DNA of 64,000 nt from Eubacteriales bacterium (lineage in GTDB: Bacteria; Bacillota; Clostridia; Oscillospirales; CAG-272): contig JAZRQR010000020.1 of NCBI GenBank assembly GCA_045650025.1, positions 11,077-75,076 of the forward strand, in the 5' to 3' direction. Position 1 is the first letter of the stretch. Each line of letters begins with the position of its first letter. This document shows, piece after piece, positions 11,367-59,125 of this stretch. A model generated the notes under the pieces. That model had not been told where the DNA came from, did no database searches, and saw only the letters and a program-made list of their open reading frames with translations. A program made the position numbers and the translations under genes.

Positions 11367-13361
11367 TTGACCGACCGAAAAACTGCGCCGAAAAAGCAAA
11401 AGGTTGGCTCGCTGTTTTTTCATCTCTTTAATCGCTTGTCGCTGTGGCTCTATACGTTATTGATCGGCAGCCTTCCTGCCCGTCTTTTAACCTCCTATGA
11501 TGCGTTGGAAAATCGATGGAGCGTGCTTTGCCTGCGTGTGCTGGGTGCACCGGATGGTAAGCTTCGTCAATCCATGCACAAGGCGCGCCTGCGCTGTGCA
11601 TCCTGGATGGAGCGTAGCGTCATCCTGCGCATACTGGATAGACTTGTCCGGTTCTTTATGCATTGTCCCTTAAACGTATATGGCATGTTCTTCTTTATAT
11701 ACGGTGGCGTTGGTGCTGCGGTGTACTTTGTAGCAGAGCGCTTGTCGGTCAGCTACGCGGGCGATCTTGGCTGGGGCGTTGCCGGCATTGTGATCGCGTT
11801 TGCATCCTTGCCGCTGCTTGCAACGGGCAAGCCGCTGAGCACGGCTGCGTTTGGTAGCCGCATCGTGGGTAATATTCTTCGCTCGTACGTTGGACTGGAG
11901 CCGCCCCTGAAAGAGAAGGAAAAGGAACGCGGCAGCACCCTGATGGTGTACGCGGCATTGATCTTTGGCATTGCAGCGGGCGCGCTGACCTTCTTCTTCC
12001 ATCCGGTCACGGTACCGATTGCCGCTGTTCTTCTGGCTCTGGCAATTGCCGTGCTGTACGTTCCCGAGTGCGGCGTACTGCTGGCTTGCGGCTCGATCTG
12101 GATGTGGTGGATGACGGGATACCCCATGCTGTGCGTGATTGGCATTACCGTGATCACTCTGATCAGCTATGCCAATAAGCTCATTCGAGGCAGACGCGTC
12201 ATGTACGTGCGCCTGATCGATTTTATGATGCTGTTGCTGCTCGCTGTATTTGCTTTGCAGGGCGTGATACTGCAAAGCGGCTTCTATGCAATTGCATACG
12301 GCGTTGGATATGCGTTATTGATCGCCGTGTATTTCCCGGTCGTCAATCTGATGCGCTCCCGCGAGTGGTTAAATCGCTGCTATAAGCTGCTTGCGATCTC
12401 GGGCTCCGTGCTGGCTGTTATCAGCATTTTGCCTGTGGCGCAGATCCTGTATTTCCTGGATATTACGCTTTTGCGCGTGGATCTTTCCATGTTTGAGCAG
12501 CTCTTTACCAGATATGATTCGTATTTCAGTCAGAAAAACATGGTGGGCGGCATTTTGCTGATGCTGCTGCCCATGATGCTGAGCCGATTTGCAGACAGAC
12601 GCACCATTACGGGCTTTTTCTGGAAGCTGCTTTGGATCATTGCAGGATGCGCGTTTGTCGTGCTGTCCATGCAGCTTGGCTTATGGATCGGCATGATCGT
12701 TGCGCTGCTTGTATTCTTCTTTGTGTACAGCTACCGTTCGTTGAGCACCGCAATGCTGCTTGCATTCCCGGTAGGCTGGGGCGTGGTATGGCGGGAGGAA
12801 ATTGACGGACTGATTGGCATGAGCCGCTGGAATATCGTGACGGATATGCAGCATGTGATAGTCAGCTTTGCGGACGATGCATACAGACGGTACGAGATCG
12901 CGCGCAGCGTGCTGCGCCTGTCCCGTGATCACCTGCTGGGCGTCGGCTTTGGCGACCAGGCGGTTTATTCCGTATTTGCGCATTATGCAGCACCCGGTAT
13001 GGAAAATGCCGTTGTGCAAAGCACGTATTTGCAGTTTTTGCTGGAATGCGGCTACCACGGTGTATTCCTGATGGTTGCGATGCTGGTCACCTTTGTGATC
13101 TGTGTGCTGACGTACCTGCATTGGGGTGGCGATGCCGCTACCAAGGTGCGTGCCGCAGCGGGTCTTGCAGGTGTTGTTGGCGTATTGGTATGCGCGGCAT
13201 TTTGCAATTTCATGAATAACGCAAGCTTGTTTGGATTGTTCTGGCTGGTAATCGGCTTGACGGTGGCGAGCCTGCGCACGCAATACGAAACGCATGCACG
13301 TGCAGTGCAAACGCATGCTTCTACGGGGGAACGCTCGGATATTGCGTTCCGTACCAGATAA
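11367..13361 (+). CDS. O-antigen ligase (Wzy_C) family polytopic membrane protein
   Basis: 664 aa, more than 10 TM; GVGFGDQ...STYLQFLLECGYHG loop; TTG start 6 nt after AAGGAGGG. Confidence 0.65.
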   Translation: MTDRKTAPKKQKVGSLFFHLFNRLSLWLYTLLIGSLPARLLTSYDALENRWSVLCLRVLGAPDGKLRQSMHKARLRCASWMERSVILRILDRLVRFFMHCPLNVYGMFFFIYGGVGAAVYFVAERLSVSYAGDLGWGVAGIVIAFASLPLLATGKPLSTAAFGSRIVGNILRSYVGLEPPLKEKEKERGSTLMVYAALIFGIAAGALTFFFHPVTVPIAAVLLALAIAVLYVPECGVLLACGSIWMWWMTGYPMLCVIGITVITLISYANKLIRGRRVMYVRLIDFMMLLLLAVFALQGVILQSGFYAIAYGVGYALLIAVYFPVVNLMRSREWLNRCYKLLAISGSVLAVISILPVAQILYFLDITLLRVDLSMFEQLFTRYDSYFSQKNMVGGILLMLLPMMLSRFADRRTITGFFWKLLWIIAGCAFVVLSMQLGLWIGMIVALLVFFFVYSYRSLSTAMLLAFPVGWGVVWREEIDGLIGMSRWNIVTDMQHVIVSFADDAYRRYEIARSVLRLSRDHLLGVGFGDQAVYSVFAHYAAPGMENAVVQSTYLQFLLECGYHGVFLMVAMLVTFVICVLTYLHWGGDAATKVRAAAGLAGVVGVLVCAAFCNFMNNASLFGLFWLVIGLTVASLRTQYETHARAVQTHASTGERSDIAFRTR

Positions 13362-34387: not shown

Positions 34388-34420
34388 AAGCCCTCCATAC
34401 CTTGGCGGTATGGAGGGCTT
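34388..34420. terminator. Terminator hairpin 2 (proximal to glpK stop)
   Basis: AAGCCCTCCATACC / GGTATGGAGGGCTT 14-bp stem. Confidence 0.7.
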
Positions 34421-34424
34421 CTGT

Positions 34425-35909
34425 TTATTCGCTGAGCGTGCGCTTGACGGCGGTTTTCCAGCCGTTCAGAAGCGATGCTCGCTGCTCCGTTTGCATATCG
34501 GGGGAGAAGCTTGCGTCCTCTTGGTAGATCGAACGAATGTCGTCCAGAGAGCTGTAAAGCCCCACGGCAAGCCCTGCCAGGCAGGCAGCGCCCAATGCGG
34601 TGGTTTCAATGCATACGGGGCGCACAATGCGGGCGTTCAGCATATTGGCTTGGAACTGCAACAGGAAGCGGTTGGCGCTTGCGCCGCCGTCCACCTTCAG
34701 AGCGTGCACCTGTGTGCCGGCCTCTTGCTCCATCACTGCAAGCACGTCTGCGGTCTGGTACGCCATTGCCTCCAGCGTTGCGCGTACGATATGTGCCTTG
34801 GTGGTTGCGCGTGTCAGACCCGTAATGCTGCCTCTTGCATAAGCATCCCAATAAGGTGCACCCAAGCCTACAAAGGCGGGAACGAAATACACGCCGCCGC
34901 TGTCGGGTACGCTCAGGGCAAGGCGTTCGGTGTCTGCGGAGGATCGGATCAGCCCAAGTCCGTCGCGCAGCCATTGCACGGCAGCGCCGCAGATAAACAC
35001 CGAGCCCTCCAGCACGTACTGAGTCTGGTCGCCAATGCGCCATGCAATCGAGGTGACCAAGCCGTTTTGCGAGGTGACGGGCGTCGTGCCCGTATTCATC
35101 AGCATAAAGCCGCCCGTACCATACGTATTTTTTACGTCACCCTTACAGAAGCAGCATTGCCCAAACAAGGCGGCCTGCTGGTCTCCTGCAACGCCTGCAA
35201 TCGGAATTTCGGTGCCAAAGAGCGTCGGCTTAGTGTATCCGAATACGCCCGAGGAGGGGAGCACGCGGGGCAGCATGCAGGCGGGAATCCCAAACAGATC
35301 CAAAAGCTCCTGATCCCAGCAAAGGTCGTGAATATTATAGATCATGGTGCGAGCCGCATTACTGGGGTCGGTGGCATGCACCTTTCCGCCCGTCAGCATC
35401 CAGATCAGCCAGGTGTCGATCGTGCCGAACAGCAGGTCGCCGCGCGCCGCTTTTTCCATAGCGCCGGGCACGTTTTGCAGGATCCAACGAATTTTGGTGG
35501 CGGAGAAATAGGCGTCGATCAAAAGTCCGGTTTTTTCGCGCACCGAACCCGCATAGCCTCGCTCCTTGAGCGCATCGCAATATGCAGCCGTGCGGCGGCA
35601 TTGCCAGACGATGGCGTTATAGATAGGCTTGCCGGTGTGTTTATCCCAAACCACCGTGGTCTCGCGCTGATTGGTAATGCCGATGGCAGCAATGTCGCTG
35701 CTGTCCAGTCCGGATTTTGCCAGCGCCTCGTGGGCAACACCAATCTGCGTTGCCCAAATTTCGGTGGGATCGTGCTCCACCCAGCCGTCAGCAGGGAAGC
35801 ATTGCGTAAATTCCTTTTGCGCCGTGGCGATCATATCGCCGTTGCGCGAAAAAATAATGGCGCGGCAGCTTGTCGTGCCTTGATCCATTGCAAGCAGATA
35901 CTGTTTCAT
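34425..35909 (-). CDS. glpK: Glycerol kinase
   Basis: [20 protein letters not shown] start; full-length FGGY signature; exact promoter 35943-35971 excludes longer ORF. Confidence 0.95.
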
Positions 35910-35942
35910 AACGCGTCTCCCGTCACAAGTTACTACAATGTG

Positions 35943-35971
35943 ATTATACCATGCTTCTCCTTGCGTGTCAA
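35943..35971 (-). promoter_or_regulatory. Exact consensus promoter TTGACA-N17-TATAAT for glpK
   Basis: Plus-strand ATTATA 35943-35948, TGTCAA 35966-35971; embedded 8-bp inverted repeat CCATGCTT/AAGCATGG (35949-56/35970-77). Confidence 0.8.
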
Positions 35972-35984
35972 GCATGGATCTTGT

Positions 35985-36033
35985 GTAGCCGTACGGGGGT
36001 CGAACCAATTCGGTTCGATTCCCGTACGGCTAC
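35985..36033. repeat. 49-bp palindrome between divergent promoters
   Basis: GTAGCCGTACGGG (35985-97) / CCCGTACGGCTAC (36021-33) plus inner TCGAACC/GGTTCGA. Confidence 0.7.
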
Positions 36034-36037
36034 CCTC

Positions 36038-36066
36038 TTGACACGGAATTTATTCGGTGATATAAT
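36038..36066 (+). promoter_or_regulatory. Exact consensus promoter TTGACA-N17-TATAAT
   Basis: Hexamers 36038-36043 and 36061-36066. Confidence 0.8.
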
Positions 36067-42954: not shown

Positions 42955-43545
42955 ATGCATTTACAGATTCATGATGCTTTGATCCCCGGAACAAAGCTGC
43001 GCAGATCCGATATGAACAACGTAACGGGTCTTGAATTTCTTTCCAAAATCTTCTTTATTTCCGACGGCGTTATGCTGACACAGATTCGTGACATCTCCGG
43101 CATTGACGGCTCGACTCTGCAAAACTGGACCAAGAGAGGCTGGGTGCCGCTTTCCAAGTCCAAGAAATACGATATTGACCAGGTTGCGTACATTTTGATT
43201 ATCAATATGCTGCGCCCCTGCATGCAGCTGGACAAGATTGCGTACATGCTGGAATACATCAACGGTGACCTGGAGGATGAGAGCGACGACATCATCCGCG
43301 CCAGCGTGCTTTACGATTATATTTGCCGCATTCTGGACGCGCTGGTGGAGGAGAATCAGTGCTCGTTTTCTTCGATCCGTGCGGTTATTGAAAAGCAGAC
43401 CACCAGCTATACCGAGGTAATGGACGGCGCAAGAGAACGCCTGACGGATGCGCTGGAGGCGATTGTGGTGGCGTACTATGCAACCCTGATCAAGCAGCGC
43501 TCGGATGAGCTTGTCAACAAGCTTGTGGGCAACCGCTATGAGTAA
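42955..43545 (+). CDS. DUF1836 domain protein (putative HTH)
   Basis: LQNWTKRGWVPLSKSKKYDIDQVAYILIINMLR matches the DUF1836 pattern; SD AGAGGAGGA. Confidence 0.55.
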   Translation: MHLQIHDALIPGTKLRRSDMNNVTGLEFLSKIFFISDGVMLTQIRDISGIDGSTLQNWTKRGWVPLSKSKKYDIDQVAYILIINMLRPCMQLDKIAYMLEYINGDLEDESDDIIRASVLYDYICRILDALVEENQCSFSSIRAVIEKQTTSYTEVMDGARERLTDALEAIVVAYYATLIKQRSDELVNKLVGNRYE

Positions 43546-44131
43546 ACGCAATTCGGAGCGCATTGTCCTTGCTGTCATTTATCTGCTGCTGATCTCGTTT
43601 GCGGCAACTGCATCGTATATGATTGCGGATCAGATCATGCGCATGCTCAACACCATCATGGTGCTGGAGGAAACGCACGTGGCAAGCGTGCTGCGCCTGT
43701 TTCTGACCGTGCTGCTCAGCTGCACGATTCTGGCTGCCGTCACGTATTGGGAGGGCTATCATTTTGCAACCTTTGAAAAGGGCATCGTCTTTCCTGCCAT
43801 CGGCATGGCGCTGGGCGTGCATTTTGCGCTGGGATTCTTGTTCGGCTTTTCTCCCTGGGTCACGGGTGGCGTCATGTATCTGACGGGCTGGATGAATTAC
43901 GGAGCGGATTACACCTCGGAGTGCTCCATGGCAACCAAGGATATCAGCGTGCTGCTTTTTGTCGCAGCGTTCGTCATCTTCTCGGGCATCTATATGCTGT
44001 TTATGACATTTCCGCAGTATTACGGAATGGTCAAGCGATTTGCGGACAGAGAAGAGCTGCTGGAGCAGGCACAGCGCAAAACAACTTATGTGCAACCGCA
44101 AGAGGAATATGCGGATTCTGACGAGAATTGA
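43538..44131 (+). CDS. Hypothetical membrane protein
   Basis: About 5 TM; ATG 43538 overlaps upstream stop (ATGAGTAA). Confidence 0.45.
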   Translation: MSKRNSERIVLAVIYLLLISFAATASYMIADQIMRMLNTIMVLEETHVASVLRLFLTVLLSCTILAAVTYWEGYHFATFEKGIVFPAIGMALGVHFALGFLFGFSPWVTGGVMYLTGWMNYGADYTSECSMATKDISVLLFVAAFVIFSGIYMLFMTFPQYYGMVKRFADREELLEQAQRKTTYVQPQEEYADSDEN

Positions 44132-44225
44132 AACAGGGGGGATTTTGAAATCCCTTATATAATAAGGGATTTCAAGTGCTCCCGGAAACGGCGAAAATTT
44201 TTTTAAAAAATTTTTCAAAAAGGTA

Positions 44226-44253
44226 TTGACAAATTCGAAAAAAGGTGTATAAT
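44226..44253 (+). promoter_or_regulatory. Strong promoter TTGACA-N16-TATAAT with UP element (tRNA operon)
   Basis: Hexamers 44226-44231 and 44248-44253, GTG extended -10, A/T tract 44185-44222. Confidence 0.8.
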
Positions 44254-44290
44254 GTTATACGTTGCCGGTAAGCAAGCCAAGGCAGCGAAT

Positions 44291-44375
44291 GCGAGAGTGG
44301 CGGAACTGGCAGACGCGCACGTTTGAGGGGCGTGTGGTTCACACCGTACGGGTTCAAGTCCCGTTTCTCGCACCA
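44291..44375 (+). tRNA. tRNA-Leu(GAG)
   Basis: Hand-folded cloverleaf: acceptor GCGAGAG/TTCTCGC, anticodon loop TTGAGGG, long variable arm, T-arm ACGGG-TTCAAGT-CCCGT, encoded CCA. Confidence 0.9.
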
Positions 44376-44408
44376 AAGGGTACGAGGTGTGAGCCTTGTA
44401 CCGAATAT

Positions 44409-44495
44409 GCGGGTATGGCGGAATTGGCAGACGCGCTAGATTCAGGTTCTAGTGGGGGCAACTTCGTGGAGGTTCAAGTCCTCTTACCCGCACCA
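44409..44495 (+). tRNA. tRNA-Leu(CAG)
   Basis: Acceptor GCGGGTA/TACCCGC, anticodon stem CTAGA/TCTAG, loop TTCAGGT, long variable arm, T-arm GGAGG-TTCAAGT-CCTCT, encoded CCA. Confidence 0.9.
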
Positions 44496-44497
44496 AA

Positions 44498-44529
44498 GCA
44501 AAGGGTGATCTTCGGATCACCCTTTTTGC
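44498..44529 (+). terminator. Rho-independent terminator T1
   Basis: GCAAAGGGTGATC-TTCG-GATCACCCTTTTTGC. Confidence 0.85.
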
Positions 44530-44531
44530 TT

Positions 44532-44675
44532 TGGTACAGGTAAGAGACCACGCAGAAGCTCCTGCGAGTACGGTGCATACTGAACACATCTATACAAGTG
44601 GTCTCCGTACTCGACGCAATAGGGAGCGCAAAGCGCGAGTCTTTGCCAGGTTCTAAGTCCTCTTACCCGCACCAA
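44532..44675 (+). other. Structured module B ending in a tRNA-Leu 3'-end copy (candidate ncRNA or att-site scar)
   Basis: 5' TGGTACAGGTAAGAGA is an inverted (14/17) copy of the tRNA 3' end; 3' end AAGTCCTCTTACCCGCACCA identical to 44476-44495. Confidence 0.4.
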
Positions 44676-44681
44676 AAAGAG

Positions 44682-44711
44682 CAGGTAGGCATTTAGCCTA
44701 CTTGTTTTTTT
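44682..44711 (+). terminator. Rho-independent terminator T2
   Basis: CAGGTAGGC-ATTTA-GCCTACTTG followed by TTTTTTT. Confidence 0.8.
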
Positions 44712-44868
44712 GTCGCGGGTATACAATGAGGACTTGAACGGGCGCGGTAGTGAATGACTGCCTAAATGGCAGTCAGAGCCGCGCCTGACCGAGGCACGTA
44801 GCAAAAGACCGCATCAATTCGCGGCTTTTGCGTCGTCGTGCCGAGAATCAAGTCTCTTACCCGCACCA
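44711..44868 (+). other. Structured module C: Y-shaped tRNA-like element with acceptor stem and ACCA (candidate ncRNA)
   Basis: GCGGGTA (44715-21) / TACCCGC (44858-64) + A + CCA; GAGGACTTGAAC (44728-39) is the exact reverse complement of tRNA T-arm 44472-83. Confidence 0.4.
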
Positions 44869-44870
44869 AA

Positions 44871-44902
44871 GCAAAGGGTGATCTTCGGATCACCCTTTTT
44901 GC
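44871..44902 (+). terminator. Rho-independent terminator T1' (duplicate of T1)
   Basis: Identical to 44498-44529. Confidence 0.85.
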
Positions 44903-45028
44903 TTTGGTACGCACCCACGTTTGCCCGATCCTTTATAAATCTTAATATCTTAAATATCGACACAATTTGTACCAAACGCAAAAAAATCTGTTATAATAGT
45001 GGCAACGATAGATTTTGAGAGGAAGCTT

Positions 45029-45796
45029 ATGTTAAAGTATTTAGGATTTACCGATACTCTGCCTGAAGCGCAGGGCGCATATTCCTGGCAGCATTTGACG
45101 TTTGTGACGTCGCTGGTGCTGGTGATGACGGCACTTGCCATTCTGATTGGATTGCATTACCGTAAGCATCCTGAAAAGAATAAAAACGTACCGCTGATCT
45201 GGGCGGCGCTGCTGATCGACGGCTTTGAGATCTGCAAGATCGTGCTCAATTGCATCCACGCAGACAACCCGGTCGATAGCCTTTTGATCAATCTGCCGCT
45301 GTTTCTGTGCAGCATCCAGCTGATCACCCTGCCGCTTGCCGCGTTCTCCAAGGGTATACTGAAGGAGGCAGCTCTTGACTTCGTTATGATCTTTGGCTTG
45401 CTGGGCGCTCTGGCGGGCACCTATGGCGCAGCACAAAACTACGCGGTGTATCACGTATTCTACTACGTTAACGTGGTCTCGGGCATTACGCATTGCATTT
45501 CCGGCTTCGGCGCGCTCTACATTGCCATTTCGGGTATCGCAAGCATGAAAAAGAGAAATATAGGCATCACCTTTGGCATTCTCTGCTTCTTCTGTGCTGC
45601 CGCATATACCGTCAACCGCCTGATCGATTACAATTACATGTTCCTGATGCGCGGTGACGGCACGCCCTACGACATTCTGTATAATCTGGTCGGCGGACAC
45701 GCCTGGCTGTACCCCATGGGCGTCATCGCATTGTTCCTGCTTTACATATCCGGCTTCTACGGTGTGTATTTCCTGATCAGCAAAAAGAAAAACTGA
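45029..45796 (+). CDS. Hypothetical polytopic membrane protein (YwaF/TIGR02206-like?)
   Basis: About 7 TM; ATG 45029 after GAGAGGAAG; ORF-track GTG 44999 lies in a -10-like TGTTATAAT. Confidence 0.4.
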   Translation: MLKYLGFTDTLPEAQGAYSWQHLTFVTSLVLVMTALAILIGLHYRKHPEKNKNVPLIWAALLIDGFEICKIVLNCIHADNPVDSLLINLPLFLCSIQLITLPLAAFSKGILKEAALDFVMIFGLLGALAGTYGAAQNYAVYHVFYYVNVVSGITHCISGFGALYIAISGIASMKKRNIGITFGILCFFCAAAYTVNRLIDYNYMFLMRGDGTPYDILYNLVGGHAWLYPMGVIALFLLYISGFYGVYFLISKKKN

Positions 45797-55269: not shown

Positions 55270-56850
55270 ATGAAAAGATTTCTTTCCGTGCTGCTCGCAT
55301 CTCTGATGGTTCTCGCTCTGGCAGCTGCTTGTGTGTTCAGCACCTCCGCAGCTCTCGAGGGTGACTGGGTAACCTCCAGAAGCGGCAGTGACTACGAGGA
55401 CGAAGGCAGCTACTGCCCCGCTCCCGGCTACCACTACGATCCCGCTCTCGGTTTCGTTATGGACCCCCCCACCTACGCTAAGGAGACCACTCCTTTCGTA
55501 CAGGCTCACCTGAAGAATGCTATTGACCTGAAGGCTAACAACGACGGTCAGGGCAACTCCGTTAACCTCAAGTTCACCGTTCTTGACTATGCTTACGACG
55601 GCGGCGAGAACAAGGACCAGTGGATCGCGCTGACTCTGAACAGCCAGCCCAGATCTACCCCCGGCTCCACCAAGTACGGCGAAGGTCTGTGCATCCTGAT
55701 CCGTGGCGGCGGCTACGGCTCCGCACAGGTTCAGCCCTTCTACGTAGACAACGAGACCGGCAAGAGCTTCACTCCTGCAACTGCATTCCCCACCGTTGAC
55801 GTTCCCATGAACGACAAGGACCAGGAAGAGTACACCTTCACCGTTAAGTATGTTGACGGCGGTTACGTTTTCGCAGTTAACGGCAACGAGTTCGTTGCAG
55901 ACGCTACCCTGAATGCTCACTTCGACAGAGTATTCGCTGAGGGTGCATACGTTGGCCTTCTGTGCCAGACCGGTGTTGCTGACACCACCATCTCCCTCGC
56001 TATCACTGAGTGGCAGGGCGAGCTCCCCGTAGGTGATGACTCCGCAGATCCTGAAGAGGACCTCCGTGAGAAGGCTCCCATCGCTGATTCCGCTACTATC
56101 GAAGCTAACATGCCCGCAGTTCTGTGGGATTCCACTATGAGAGACTTCAGAAAGATCTCTCTGTCCGGTGGTGAGTATGTAATCAACGAAGACGGTTCCG
56201 TTAAGATCAACATCCAGACCGTTTCTCCTTACATTTCCTTCGGTATCAAGTCCGAGGTTTCCTACGAAGCAGCTGACTTCCCCTATGTAGTAGTTCTGAC
56301 CAGAAACTGCATGGCTAACAGCGGTAACGTTTACTACTGCGCAGGTCCCATCCTGTCCGCAGAGAACAACTACTCCGAGAACTGGACCATCGATGATGTT
56401 ACTTACCCCGATGGTTGGGCTCTGGGTATCATGGACTTCTCCGACTACAACGAAGATGGTTGGTACGGCAGAATTAACAGCATCCGTGTTGGTTTTGACT
56501 TCTCCGCAGACGATATCGCTGACGAAGAGTTCAACAACTTCGACATCGGCTTCATCGGCGCATTCCGCTCCGTTGAAGAGGCTCAGGCTTACACCGCTGC
56601 TTGGCTCGCAGCTAAGGGCTACAGCGCAGAAGTAACCACTGAGGCAGAGACTGAAAAGCCCACCGAGGAAGAGACCACCAAGGCTCCCGAGGCTACTACC
56701 GAGGCTAAGACCGAGGCTGGTGCTGACGCAACCACCGAGGCTGAGACCGAGGCTGCAAAGAAGTCCAACTGCAACTCCATCGTTGCTGCTCCCGTTGTAG
56801 CATTCATTGCTATTCTGGGCGTTGCTTTCGTAGCAAAGAAGAAGGACTAA
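55270..56850 (+). CDS. Secreted cell-surface protein, LamG/ConA-like region, T/E-rich stalk and C-terminal TM anchor
   Basis: Signal peptide ..STSA/ALEG; C-terminus TEAETE..SNCNS-IVAAPVVAFIAILGVAFVA-KKKD; AGA/CGT Arg codons like ribosomal genes. Confidence 0.6.
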   Translation: MKRFLSVLLASLMVLALAAACVFSTSAALEGDWVTSRSGSDYEDEGSYCPAPGYHYDPALGFVMDPPTYAKETTPFVQAHLKNAIDLKANNDGQGNSVNLKFTVLDYAYDGGENKDQWIALTLNSQPRSTPGSTKYGEGLCILIRGGGYGSAQVQPFYVDNETGKSFTPATAFPTVDVPMNDKDQEEYTFTVKYVDGGYVFAVNGNEFVADATLNAHFDRVFAEGAYVGLLCQTGVADTTISLAITEWQGELPVGDDSADPEEDLREKAPIADSATIEANMPAVLWDSTMRDFRKISLSGGEYVINEDGSVKINIQTVSPYISFGIKSEVSYEAADFPYVVVLTRNCMANSGNVYYCAGPILSAENNYSENWTIDDVTYPDGWALGIMDFSDYNEDGWYGRINSIRVGFDFSADDIADEEFNNFDIGFIGAFRSVEEAQAYTAAWLAAKGYSAEVTTEAETEKPTEEETTKAPEATTEAKTEAGADATTEAETEAAKKSNCNSIVAAPVVAFIAILGVAFVAKKKD

Positions 56851-57061: not shown

Positions 57062-59125
57062 ATGTCTAGAACACAACTGTTATCCGTTCTTTCTTTGATC
57101 CTTTGCCTTGTGATGGTGCTGCCTTTTGCAGCATGTCATCCCGCAAGCGAAGGGGAAGGACAAACCACCGACCTTGTAACCGATGCGGAAACCGCAGAGG
57201 ATTCTGCTGCTGACACCGAGGACAATACCGAGGGCAATACCGAAGCCGATACCGAAACGGGTACCGAGCAGGACACCCAGCCTCCCAAGGAGGAGCTTGG
57301 CGTGGCAGGTAAGCCTTCCATCAATTTTGATAAGACCGTTCAGGTAACCGAGAACGGCGGCGCTGCTGTCGTTACTACCGCGTCCGGTCTTGCTTACACC
57401 GCATCCGGCTACAGCCAATATGCAAACGGCTCGTTTACCATCAACGCAAACCATAAGGTAACGCTGGACGGCTTTGCAGACAGCTTTAACAGATTGACGC
57501 TGTGCTACGTTTCGGATGCACCGCTGGAGTGCACCGTAACCTACGTGCAGAACGGCAAAACCGTGGAGGATCTGTTCTACCTCGAAGCAGGCACACAGAC
57601 CTTCTGCGCGCTCACGCTTGGTTATTTGTCCGGCAAGCAGGCAAGTGATCTGACCGCAATTTCCTTTAGCACCTGCGAGGAAAAGAATGCAAGCTTTGTG
57701 CTGTGCGACGTTAAGACCGAGGTTTACGAGGTGTACGCAGATGACGTATACTACGTAGAAAACGATGCTTACGTGCTTGGCATTCGTCTTTCCTGGGGCG
57801 GTGGCGTTTGCTACATCAAGGATAAGAATAGCCAGATCAAGGGCATTGAAAACCTGATCAACCAGGCGGACACCGGCAGACTGGTGCAGCAATCCTACTA
57901 CGGCACGTATGCAAACGGTGAATACGTCAACGGCAATTACAATGGCACCACCTGGCCCTACAACCCCGTACAGGGCGGTGACGTGCACGGCAATGCCAGC
58001 CGTATCATTGACATCGTGGTAGGCGATAGCTCGCTGTATATCAAAGCACAGCCGCAGGACTGGGGTCACAACAACGATCTGACCATCAGCTACATGGAAA
58101 ACGTCTACGTCCTGGAGGACAACTATATCCGCGTAGATAACCGCTTTGTGGATTTCTCGGGTTGGGAGCACAGATACGCCAACCAGGAGCTGCCCGCATT
58201 CTATACGCTGAGCTATTTTAACGAGTTCTCTTACTACGCAGGCTCCAAGTCCTGGGAAGATCAGCCTCTGACTACCAGAGATGACCTTGGCTTCTGGGGA
58301 GATGCAAAATATCACGACGACTGCACCTTCAAGATTCGCTACAGCAACACGGAAACCTGGTGCGCATGGACCAACGGCTTGACCGATTACGGCATTGGCT
58401 TGTTTGTTCCTAATGTGGATATCCTGCTTGCAGGCAGACACGCTTATAACGGCAGCAAGGACTCCAAGAACGGCGCTACCAACTACGTAGCCCCCTTGTG
58501 CACCATGAAGATCGTATCCTTCGAGCCCATCGAATACAGCTACATGATGACCACCGGTACGCTTGACCAGATCCGTAGCACCTTCAAGGCGAACAAGGAT
58601 TTTGCCACCAACGAATCTCTGCACAACAATTACATCAACGAGCGTATTGAGGACGAGGGCGCAGCAGTTCCGATGGATAAGCTGGTATTTGACAATCTCA
58701 ACGCCAGCCTCAAGCTGCAGGCTATGAACAATACCGTTACGGGCTTTGACGAGGAGCAGAAGGCTGCTACGCTGACCGTTGCGACCGCAAGCGATCCTTA
58801 TGCCAACATTGATTACACCAAATCTGCTGTTAAGCTCAAGGCAGAGGATTACACCAAGATCGTGGTTACGTACATGATCCCCACGACCAACAGCCGCTCG
58901 ACTTATAACGCAGAGCTGTTCTTAAGCACGGGCACCTCCATGAACGCCGAGGGCGGCAAATCGGTGCGCGGACAGGTCGTAGCCGATGGTGAATACCATA
59001 CGCTTGAAATCTCGGTAGCGGGACTTTCGTTCTGGTCGGGTAATATCAACGCGATCCGCTTTGACTACTTTGATGCATGCGGCGTCGGTGACGTGATCTA
59101 CGTTCGCTCCATTGAACTCCAATAA
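57062..59125 (+). CDS. Hypothetical secreted lipoprotein with acidic xTE-repeat linker
   Basis: Lipobox PFAAC; DTEDNTEGNTEADTETGTEQDT repeat; about 600-aa unrecognised domain. Confidence 0.5.
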   Translation: MSRTQLLSVLSLILCLVMVLPFAACHPASEGEGQTTDLVTDAETAEDSAADTEDNTEGNTEADTETGTEQDTQPPKEELGVAGKPSINFDKTVQVTENGGAAVVTTASGLAYTASGYSQYANGSFTINANHKVTLDGFADSFNRLTLCYVSDAPLECTVTYVQNGKTVEDLFYLEAGTQTFCALTLGYLSGKQASDLTAISFSTCEEKNASFVLCDVKTEVYEVYADDVYYVENDAYVLGIRLSWGGGVCYIKDKNSQIKGIENLINQADTGRLVQQSYYGTYANGEYVNGNYNGTTWPYNPVQGGDVHGNASRIIDIVVGDSSLYIKAQPQDWGHNNDLTISYMENVYVLEDNYIRVDNRFVDFSGWEHRYANQELPAFYTLSYFNEFSYYAGSKSWEDQPLTTRDDLGFWGDAKYHDDCTFKIRYSNTETWCAWTNGLTDYGIGLFVPNVDILLAGRHAYNGSKDSKNGATNYVAPLCTMKIVSFEPIEYSYMMTTGTLDQIRSTFKANKDFATNESLHNNYINERIEDEGAAVPMDKLVFDNLNASLKLQAMNNTVTGFDEEQKAATLTVATASDPYANIDYTKSAVKLKAEDYTKIVVTYMIPTTNSRSTYNAELFLSTGTSMNAEGGKSVRGQVVADGEYHTLEISVAGLSFWSGNINAIRFDYFDACGVGDVIYVRSIELQ

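Follow-up and report, generated by a model that had tools for sequence, protein, structure and literature searches.

The region considered here lies behind the tRNA-Leu(CAG) gene in a 64-kb window from an Eubacteriales bacterium (the window being the whole stretch of 64,000 nucleotides that was analysed, on contig JAZRQR010000020.1). In this region, five copies of the tRNA's 3' end, direct and inverted, pair up as the termini of two folded units, termed modules B and C, and are not five scars. At the head of each unit stands the inverse of the tRNA end, at its close a direct copy, and a terminator follows each. The reading that we favor, with a probability of about 0.4, is that B and C are structured RNA modules in the 3'-trailers of tRNA operons, with repeats that recombine and are kept identical to the tRNA, and the units look like an undescribed family of tRNA-linked elements rather than a dead integration scar. 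Units of this family are non-coding and strongly folded, measure ~110-160 nt and lie downstream of tRNA genes as tandem arrays on the same strand. At their start, the last ~19-22 nt of the preceding tRNA appear as reverse complement, and at their end as a direct copy, which runs, in most copies, from T-loop position 55/56 to the discriminator or to the CCA; on the plus strand, these two ends form a closing helix that encloses conserved hairpins. The features concerned are as follows.

44409-44495, plus strand: tRNA-Leu(CAG), called by ARAGORN; the sequence found again in the direct copies is its final ~21 nt (44475-44495).
44481-44537, plus strand: first copy of the long direct repeat, 57 nt exact, comprising the tRNA 3' end and terminator T1.
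44496-44537, plus strand: terminator T1, stem at 44500-44525, then UUUUUGCUUUGG.
44530-44676, plus strand: module B, 5' inverted arm at 44530-44546 and 3' direct arm at 44648-44676.
44676-44714, plus strand: terminator T2, stem 44676-44690 / 44696-44710, overlapping seven T's at 44704-44710.
44715-44868, plus strand: module C, 5' inverted arm split by a loop, 3' end with A + CCA (44865-44868).
44715-44721 / 44858-44864, plus strand: helix P1 of C, an acceptor-like 7-bp stem, followed by A + CCA.
~44722-44728, plus strand: internal loop of C, 6-7 nt.
44729-44737 / 44848-44856, plus strand: helix P2 of C, ~10 bp, in which the T-loop and the 3' strand of the T-stem pair with their complement.
44739-44787, plus strand: two-part hairpin P3 of C.
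44793-44842, plus strand: two-part hairpin P4 of C, with the invariant distal stem GCAAAAG(A)CCGC/GCGGCUUUUGC.
44849-44910, plus strand: direct copy with a second, identical T1 (hairpin 44873-44898) and a 1-nt deletion at 44853/44854.

The structure of C was modeled with RNAalifold on seven copies, giving a consensus of 49 pairs with 96.8% of the cells paired. Compensatory changes were found at 13 of these 49 pairs; column shuffles gave 5.3 +/- 1.2 (13 was attained in 0 of 500), and controls with slid partners yielded only 1-2 pairs with double changes; at one pair, six of the seven copies carry G.U. The folding energy of C is -81.9 kcal/mol (z = -7.9) for the plus strand and -70.6 kcal/mol for the minus strand, and a minus-strand RNA is thus less likely, the plus strand being more stable by ~11 kcal/mol. 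A covariance model of C retrieved eleven full or near-full copies, all of them on the tRNA strand, as were the lower-scoring matches. Module B folds at -52.6 kcal/mol (z = -3.9), and its interior contains a covarying stem (44566-44573 / 44605-44612), a small hairpin at ~44628-44642 and conserved single-stranded tracts. A previous reading of this DNA, made from the sequence only, had stated that the interval between the repeats encodes nothing; this stands insofar as 44496-44910 contains no credible open reading frame (ORF), whereas the B and C segments are strongly folded.

Despite their tRNA-derived ends, the units are not tRNAs. No D, anticodon or T arm was found in them, and ARAGORN and Rfam detect just the two genuine tRNAs, so that the absence of a cloverleaf excludes a tRNA, a tmRNA or a tRNA pseudogene. 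Mimicry of a T arm by the 3' arm was likewise discarded, only 2-4 bp being possible, as was a hammerhead-like CUGACCGAGG...CCGAGAC in C, in which the core does not fit and which has no Rfam match.

The repeats themselves are real. Repeat search and BLAST recovered the 63/62-nt repeat that the sequence-only reading had reported, with its period of 373/374 bp and its single 1-nt deletion: positions 44481-44537 and 44854-44910 are identical over 57 nt, and the 5-6 nt ahead of them read CAAGTC and CAAGT, respectively. The third direct copy, placed between the long repeats at 44648-44676, also holds; it is exact over the 22 nt of 44655-44676 and reaches 44648 via a 1-nt insertion (GGTTC-T-AAG), and, as had been noticed, it has its own, different terminator (T2). 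The first inverted copy, at 44530-44546, is complementary to the tRNA end at 15 of 17 positions, one more than the 14 of 17 originally counted, and the second is split, as described, into two exact parts, 44715-44721 (GCGGGTA, 7/7) and 44728-44739 (12/12). In shuffles of the window, the number of chance matches expected for the 21-mer CAAGTCCTCTTACCCGCACCA with up to three mismatches is 0.00.

Relatives of this locus were collected through two baits, namely homologues of a conserved 208-aa protein encoded upstream of the tRNA operon (~45 loci) and a gene downstream (80 loci):

45029-45796, plus strand: gene for a TMEM164-family membrane protein, part of the downstream context, with its own promoter region.

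All loci fetched come from uncultured Oscillospirales ('Eubacteriales', Faecousia, Acutalibacteraceae) of ruminant and other animal guts, and none is conspecific with the window, the best having ~90% protein identity. B and/or C stand behind the orthologous tRNA-Leu(CAG) in L002, L008, L009, L014, L085, L086, L089 and L106, being 79-82% identical to the window, where the four-fold degenerate sites of the adjacent gene are 32-49% identical, i.e., saturated. The arrays differ in content and order:

L085: T1-B-T2-C; the contig stops inside C.
L086: T1-B and the first part of T2; afterwards it diverges and the contig stops.
L014 (flanking protein 67% identical): serine-recombinase element, then T1'-B-T2-C-T3.
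L009: T1-C-C'-T3.
L008: C-C-T3.
L002: T1-C-B-(C fragment).
L106: T1-B-T3.
L089: T1-B-T ... B', the second B truncated.
L083, the closest relative (~90% protein identity): T1 and a short C without hairpin P3, nothing more.
L097/L098: T1 and half of B, the L097 copy being truncated.
L115/L118: a B variant and a partial C, truncated.

Across more than 20 independent copies the unit boundaries are identical. The order T1-B is common to the whole clade and is inherited vertically, and B-T2-C is kept down to 67% protein identity. Single copies illustrate how far a unit can vary. The C of L083 (L083:3990-4108) is a natural 'mini-C', with no P3, no B beside it and no second T1, from which the minimal retained core of C would appear to be the closing helices and P4. 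The second C of L009 (L009:525-731) has an insertion of ~50 nt in the P3 loop and several A.C mismatches, and scores 152 bits with the C model. A more distant relative, L041, carries a diverged unit behind tRNA-Leu(CAG) (L041:3740-3930), in which the 5' arm resembles the inverse of the tRNA end (GGCACAGGTATCGGCTTGAAC) and a copy of the tRNA end is no longer recognizable in the 3' arm.

These comparisons bear on the explanation that the sequence-only reading had considered, an integrase footprint. According to it, the repeats would be attL/attR-type (attachment-site) scars of one or two insertions, the cargo having later been deleted and the remaining 310 bp being inert. Part of this stood: the direct repeats have att-like anatomy, running from the T-loop to the 3' end of the tRNA. 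Moreover, integration at the same tRNA is seen in relatives (L014 and L003), and simple 'empty' sites, in which tRNA-Leu(CAG) is followed by its terminator, exist in other Clostridia-like contigs, L124 and L125. The inert scar of ~310 bp, on the other hand, is unsupported. Random deletions would leave variable boundaries, and those of the units are constant; the units are conserved well above the four-fold sites, and their stems covary. The alignment with relatives revealed the empty sites and no full island, and a relative with an intact element between the same repeats, as expected of a deletion remnant, was not found among the loci fetched; nor is there an integrase gene, a relic of one or cargo among or near the repeats. 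An arrangement shared with distant relatives had been named as the sign of function rather than scar, and T1-B-T2-C is indeed present in L085 and, at 67% protein identity, in L014. Finally, a scar leaves the inverted arms unexplained. That they do not derive from simple att duplication had been suspected from the outset, and they now turn out to be the 5' strands of the closing helices and, equally, the outer arms of terminator palindromes. Because of the conservation above neutral sites, the constant boundaries and the covariation, the structured trailer RNA is favored over a scar, which we regard as most unlikely.

An error of assembly was also considered, in which the second copy of direct repeat and T1 would result from mis-assembly of repeats. 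Among the loci fetched, a T1 after module C is seen in the window only, and many metagenome contigs break at this locus. In fact, most of those that carry the upstream gene (L083-L129) end in or shortly after the tRNA/unit region, and the contigs of its closest homologues (P0001 and P0006) end before the tRNA; apparently, the repeats break short-read assemblies and may hide such arrays in metagenome-assembled genomes. Against an artefact, independent assemblies contain T1-B-T2-C (L085) and T1-B with the start of T2 (L086), and the copy at 44849-44910 has a 1-nt deletion of its own and a unique right flank. This explanation is therefore exceedingly unlikely, and, as it concerns only the 57-nt duplicate, it leaves the finding as a whole unaffected.

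Units of the same kind are not restricted to tRNA-Leu(CAG). A pattern scan of metagenomes gave one true match, the contig L082, in which a C unit lies behind tRNA-Leu(CAA) with its interior conserved and both arms altered to fit that tRNA (a further match, L081, was false and merely a terminator). When every tRNA across the loci was scanned, units were also found behind Gln(CTG), Leu(CAA), Leu(TAG), Arg(TCT) and His, and the further types were named D, E, F and G:

Behind tRNA-Gln(CTG): L025, L030, L033, L043 and L059.
Behind tRNA-Leu(CAA): L043.
Behind tRNA-Leu(TAG): L067.
Behind tRNA-Arg(TCT) and tRNA-His: L120, L122 and L123; the His unit has the inverted 5' arm only, the direct copy being missing.

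All unit copies are on the tRNA strand. One interior, E, is found in three species with Gln(CTG) ahead of it and in L043 with Leu(CAA) ahead of it; it folds into a four-way junction (z = -5.5) with covarying hairpins and is 70-85% identical where four-fold sites are 46-59% identical. E and C have a hairpin with a GGU triloop in common, and the motif UGACCGAG is common to C, D and the Arg-type unit. Between tRNA-Arg and tRNA-His, L122 and L123 have a unit with no terminator, which must therefore be co-transcribed with these tRNAs. In most copies that have a direct arm, identity to the tRNA sets in at T55/C56, the unit side reading '..AA', and this is so for five tRNA species and several families of units; in B-type copies it sets in 1-2 nt later, or back at the end of the T-stem.

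The L120 and L122 contigs, which IMG/VR calls viral, deserve separate mention. There (L120:1300-1900 and L122:460-1300), a G-type unit is cut off at the expected direct copy of tRNA-His and is followed by phage-like genes for small membrane proteins, so a prophage may be attached at the unit's copy of the tRNA-His end, which hints that extra direct copies serve as secondary attachment sites.

The sharp edge in the T-loop is the hallmark of a different explanation, in which the units are non-autonomous integrative cassettes. Here, a unit with its terminator would be inserted at T-loop position 54/55 by a recombinase encoded elsewhere, the right-hand direct copy would be the displaced original tRNA end, and the fold would serve the element's own propagation; as a variant, the units would hitch-hike by accretion with larger elements, in the manner of a miniature cis-mobilizable element (CIME). 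The left edge at T55/C56 in most copies is a classic signature of crossover in the T-loop, and the direct copies stay exact while the remainder drifts. In line with mobility, units are present or absent, reordered or truncated at orthologous loci, and interior E occurs behind two different tRNAs. The 57-nt flanking repeat is what a Campbell-type insertion of a circle carrying direct copy and T1 would produce, and terminators and lacking promoters weigh against expression. In this regard, the tRNA end is in use by an actual element: the integrated element of L014 and L003 has its end at ...GGATTTATCATCAC(T/C)CACT|GCACCAA, the 3' end of tRNA-Leu(CAG), upstream of T1 (L014:596-2099; L003:460-500), and in L014 it encodes a large serine recombinase (Resolvase + Recombinase + Zn_ribbon_recom) in frameshift-split ORFs (596-1672 / 1599-2099). 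This junction makes the tRNA end an active integration target in relatives.

However, the ~65 ORFs scanned in the window, ~20 of them without a Pfam match, revealed no integrase, transposase or reverse transcriptase, and the phages, plasmids and viral contigs searched revealed no copy of B or C. For recombination, a circle of 160-370 bp would be very small. Simple att duplication leaves it unexplained that the inverted arm, too, follows the tRNA (e.g., in L082); the vertical descent of T1-B across the clade and the retention of B-T2-C fit poorly, and multi-hairpin covariation resembles an RNA fold. Taken together, insertion as cassettes or by accretion is doubtful, if a rival to be taken seriously. 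A full system of this kind, i.e., tRNA-anchored cassettes inserted at T-loop 54/55 that use the palindromes as attC-like sites or are copied back from RNA, with the recombinase or reverse transcriptase encoded elsewhere and arrays built up behind many tRNAs, is a quite unlikely proposition; if true, gut Clostridia would harbor a new class of non-coding mobile element that targets tRNAs.

The terminators are closely tied to the units. T1 (-20.4 kcal/mol) and T2 (-19.3 kcal/mol) are strong plus-strand hairpins with U tracts, as intrinsic terminators should be, and the T1 hairpin is lengthened by pairing of ACCAAAGCAAA with UUUGCUUUGGU. Each inverted arm is continuous with the preceding terminator stem, so that tRNA end, terminator and inverse form one long, near-perfect palindrome; the palindromes centered on T1 and T2 fold at -43.4 and -34.4 kcal/mol, and the arms of the latter are the 3' arm of B and the 5' arm of C. 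In L120, behind tRNA-His, the corresponding palindrome is perfect, with arms of 41 nt.

Such near-perfect palindromes would be expected if the copies were functionless by-products, with hairpins behind a strongly transcribed tRNA seeding template-switch (quasi-palindrome) events that leave inverted copies of the left flank, and repeated switches building up alternating direct and inverted copies. The continuity of the inverted copies with the terminator stem, the perfection of the L120 arms and the match of inverted arms to the T arm beyond the unit's direct arm all agree with this. Yet it explains neither the discrete interiors, 70-85% conserved despite saturated neutral sites, nor the compensatory changes in internal stems, the constant T55 boundary or the presence of one interior behind different tRNAs, and we consider it very unlikely.

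The operon to which the window's units belong starts with these features:

44226-44253, plus strand: promoter of the tRNA-Leu operon, sigma-70-type, TTGACA-16-TATAAT, with 12/12 consensus matches.
44291-44375, plus strand: tRNA-Leu(GAG), called by ARAGORN, with no trailing module; a 33-nt spacer separates it from the next tRNA.

No further promoter-like site was found in 44000-45200. Just upstream of the promoter is an A/T-rich palindromic tract (44193-44221), possibly an UP element. The spacer between the two tRNA-Leu genes (44376-44408) has a hairpin of its own, GGTACGAGG...CCTTGTACC; in L002 and L009, only 3 nt separate the two genes. Directly upstream of the operon, at 42955-44131, a DUF1836 gene and the conserved 208-aa ORF, which has no Pfam match, overlap by 41 nt, and the pair is syntenic in every relative fetched through it. 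At the end of the upstream gene (44145-44175), a perfect 14-bp hairpin, TTGAAATCCCTTAT/ATAAGGGATTTCAA, is kept in relatives.

On the structured-RNA reading, the units would be made as the 3'-trailer or read-through portion of the tRNA operon transcript. Their tRNA-like closing helix could let RNase P, through the acceptor-like stem, and 3' trimming enzymes release and stabilize them, and it might also prevent mispairing between the inverted arm and the genuine tRNA. Gene conversion and unequal crossing-over may take place among the direct repeats and between them and the tRNA gene; such recombination would keep the direct copies identical to the tRNA, would shuffle, gain and lose units, and could have yielded the duplication of 57 nt (direct copy and T1) that is peculiar to the window. 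Support for this reading comes from the conservation above neutral sites, the covariation (in C and in family E), the bias to the plus strand, the ends that track the local tRNA, the placement of the unit in L122 and L123, the absence of a recombinase from the window and the absence of matches in phages and plasmids.

Several observations weigh against it. T1 and T2 lie between the sole detected promoter and B and C, and expression in the window would thus need read-through. The direct arms do not vary and match the tRNA throughout, while drift is seen in the inverted arms, an asymmetry that a simple RNA helix does not predict, and the inverted arms are complementary to the whole T arm of the tRNA, beyond the unit's own direct arm. 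The acceptor part of B pairs poorly in several species, and the encoded CCA is missing from several copies of C. Moreover, some copies are truncated (L097, the second B of L089, L115/L118, the fragment in L002) and some units are absent altogether (B from L083, any unit from L038), which makes the units dispensable. Together with the constant T55 boundary, these weak points keep the DNA-level cassette model alive.

Searches of databases identified no known element. In the window region, Rfam 15 at permissive E-values gave a best non-tRNA score of 25 bits against a threshold of 75, and on seven related loci it found tRNAs only. The window region matched phages through its tRNAs only; B + C had no match in plasmids, nor the E unit in phages, and pattern scans of viral contigs for C, B and the L014 element end had no match. 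The 64-kb window contains no other copy of B or C, and look-ups of window proteins by exact match gave no recorded entry. Its genes are of the housekeeping kind (Obg, Ppa, TrmD, UvrC, RuvAB, MecA, a DinG-like helicase and YfhO), and four long ORFs (526-687 aa; 11367-13361, 34410-36041, 55270-56850 and 57062-59125) have no Pfam match at E <= 1e-5. Other candidate identities were set aside. A T-box, riboswitch or leader does not fit because the downstream genes differ or converge in relatives. In a bridge RNA or omega-RNA guide, the arms should pair with adjacent target halves; those of the units pair with each other, and no IS110 or TnpB is nearby. A transposable element of the miniature inverted-repeat type (MITE) is at odds with arms that vary with the neighboring tRNA, with copies that are all seen behind tRNAs and with a single locus in 64 kb. 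For an integron attC/cassette array, the window lacks a tyrosine recombinase and the arms, judged by eye, do not fit RYYYAAC / GTTRRRY. No description of such units was found in the literature; tRNA gene fragments left by integrating elements are treated, as general background, in PMC9897764.

If the units are RNAs, the abundant uncultured Oscillospirales of rumen and gut contain a sizeable family of structured RNAs not described before, and termini that copy the 3' end of the preceding tRNA would suggest a link with tRNA processing, quality control or end recognition. Should they be mobile cassettes, no smaller elements anchored on tRNA genes would be known, and they would account for extra copies of tRNA attachment sequences potentially available to other integrative elements. 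In annotation, short tRNA 3' fragments behind tRNAs in these genomes should not be taken for simple island scars, and assemblies break there.

Among known systems, integron attC arrays share with the units a single-site anchor and imperfect palindromes with conserved outer arms and variable centers (60-95 bp between the units, made of tRNA end, terminator and inverse), and a folded single strand is plausible. Unlike in integrons, there is no IntI, attI, Pc or attC core motif here, the cassettes are non-coding and the anchor is the 3' end of a tRNA.

RNAs with tRNA-like ends, or made within tRNA transcripts, are a second group. Examples are the trailer small RNA 3'ETS-leuZ of E. coli and MALAT1/mascRNA, and RNase P is known to accept precursor 4.5S RNA and the tRNA-like domain of tmRNA as substrates. 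The units resemble these in being part of a tRNA transcription unit, in their acceptor-like stem with discriminator and CCA (C of the window) and in their compact, stable fold. They differ in that their helix copies the neighboring tRNA exactly through the T-loop, with no T arm or cloverleaf, and in that terminators often precede them; their processing, moreover, is inferred.

The att repeats at tRNA genes, including those of CIMEs, i.e., cis-mobilizable elements with att-site flanks and without recombination genes, are similar in that the direct repeats are the tRNA 3' end from the T-loop on, accretion is in tandem and the content varies. Both att-type flanks and presence or absence at orthologous sites are found for the units (L083 without B, L038 unitless). 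In contrast to such elements, the units are 110-160 bp long and non-coding, have an inverted arm that tracks the tRNA and folds that covary, and are conserved vertically; and neither a parent element nor a cognate integrase turned up in the window, viral contigs, phages or plasmids.

Lastly, repetitive extragenic palindromic (REP) sequences, bacterial interspersed mosaic elements (BIMEs), REPINs and MITE-type repeats are likewise small and palindromic, with units that alternate in orientation, mosaic linkers, hairpins held by compensatory change and variable copy number. What sets the units described here apart is that their terminal repeats copy the upstream tRNA instead of being element-specific, that they are seen only directly behind tRNAs and on the same strand, and that they fold into multi-hairpin junctions.

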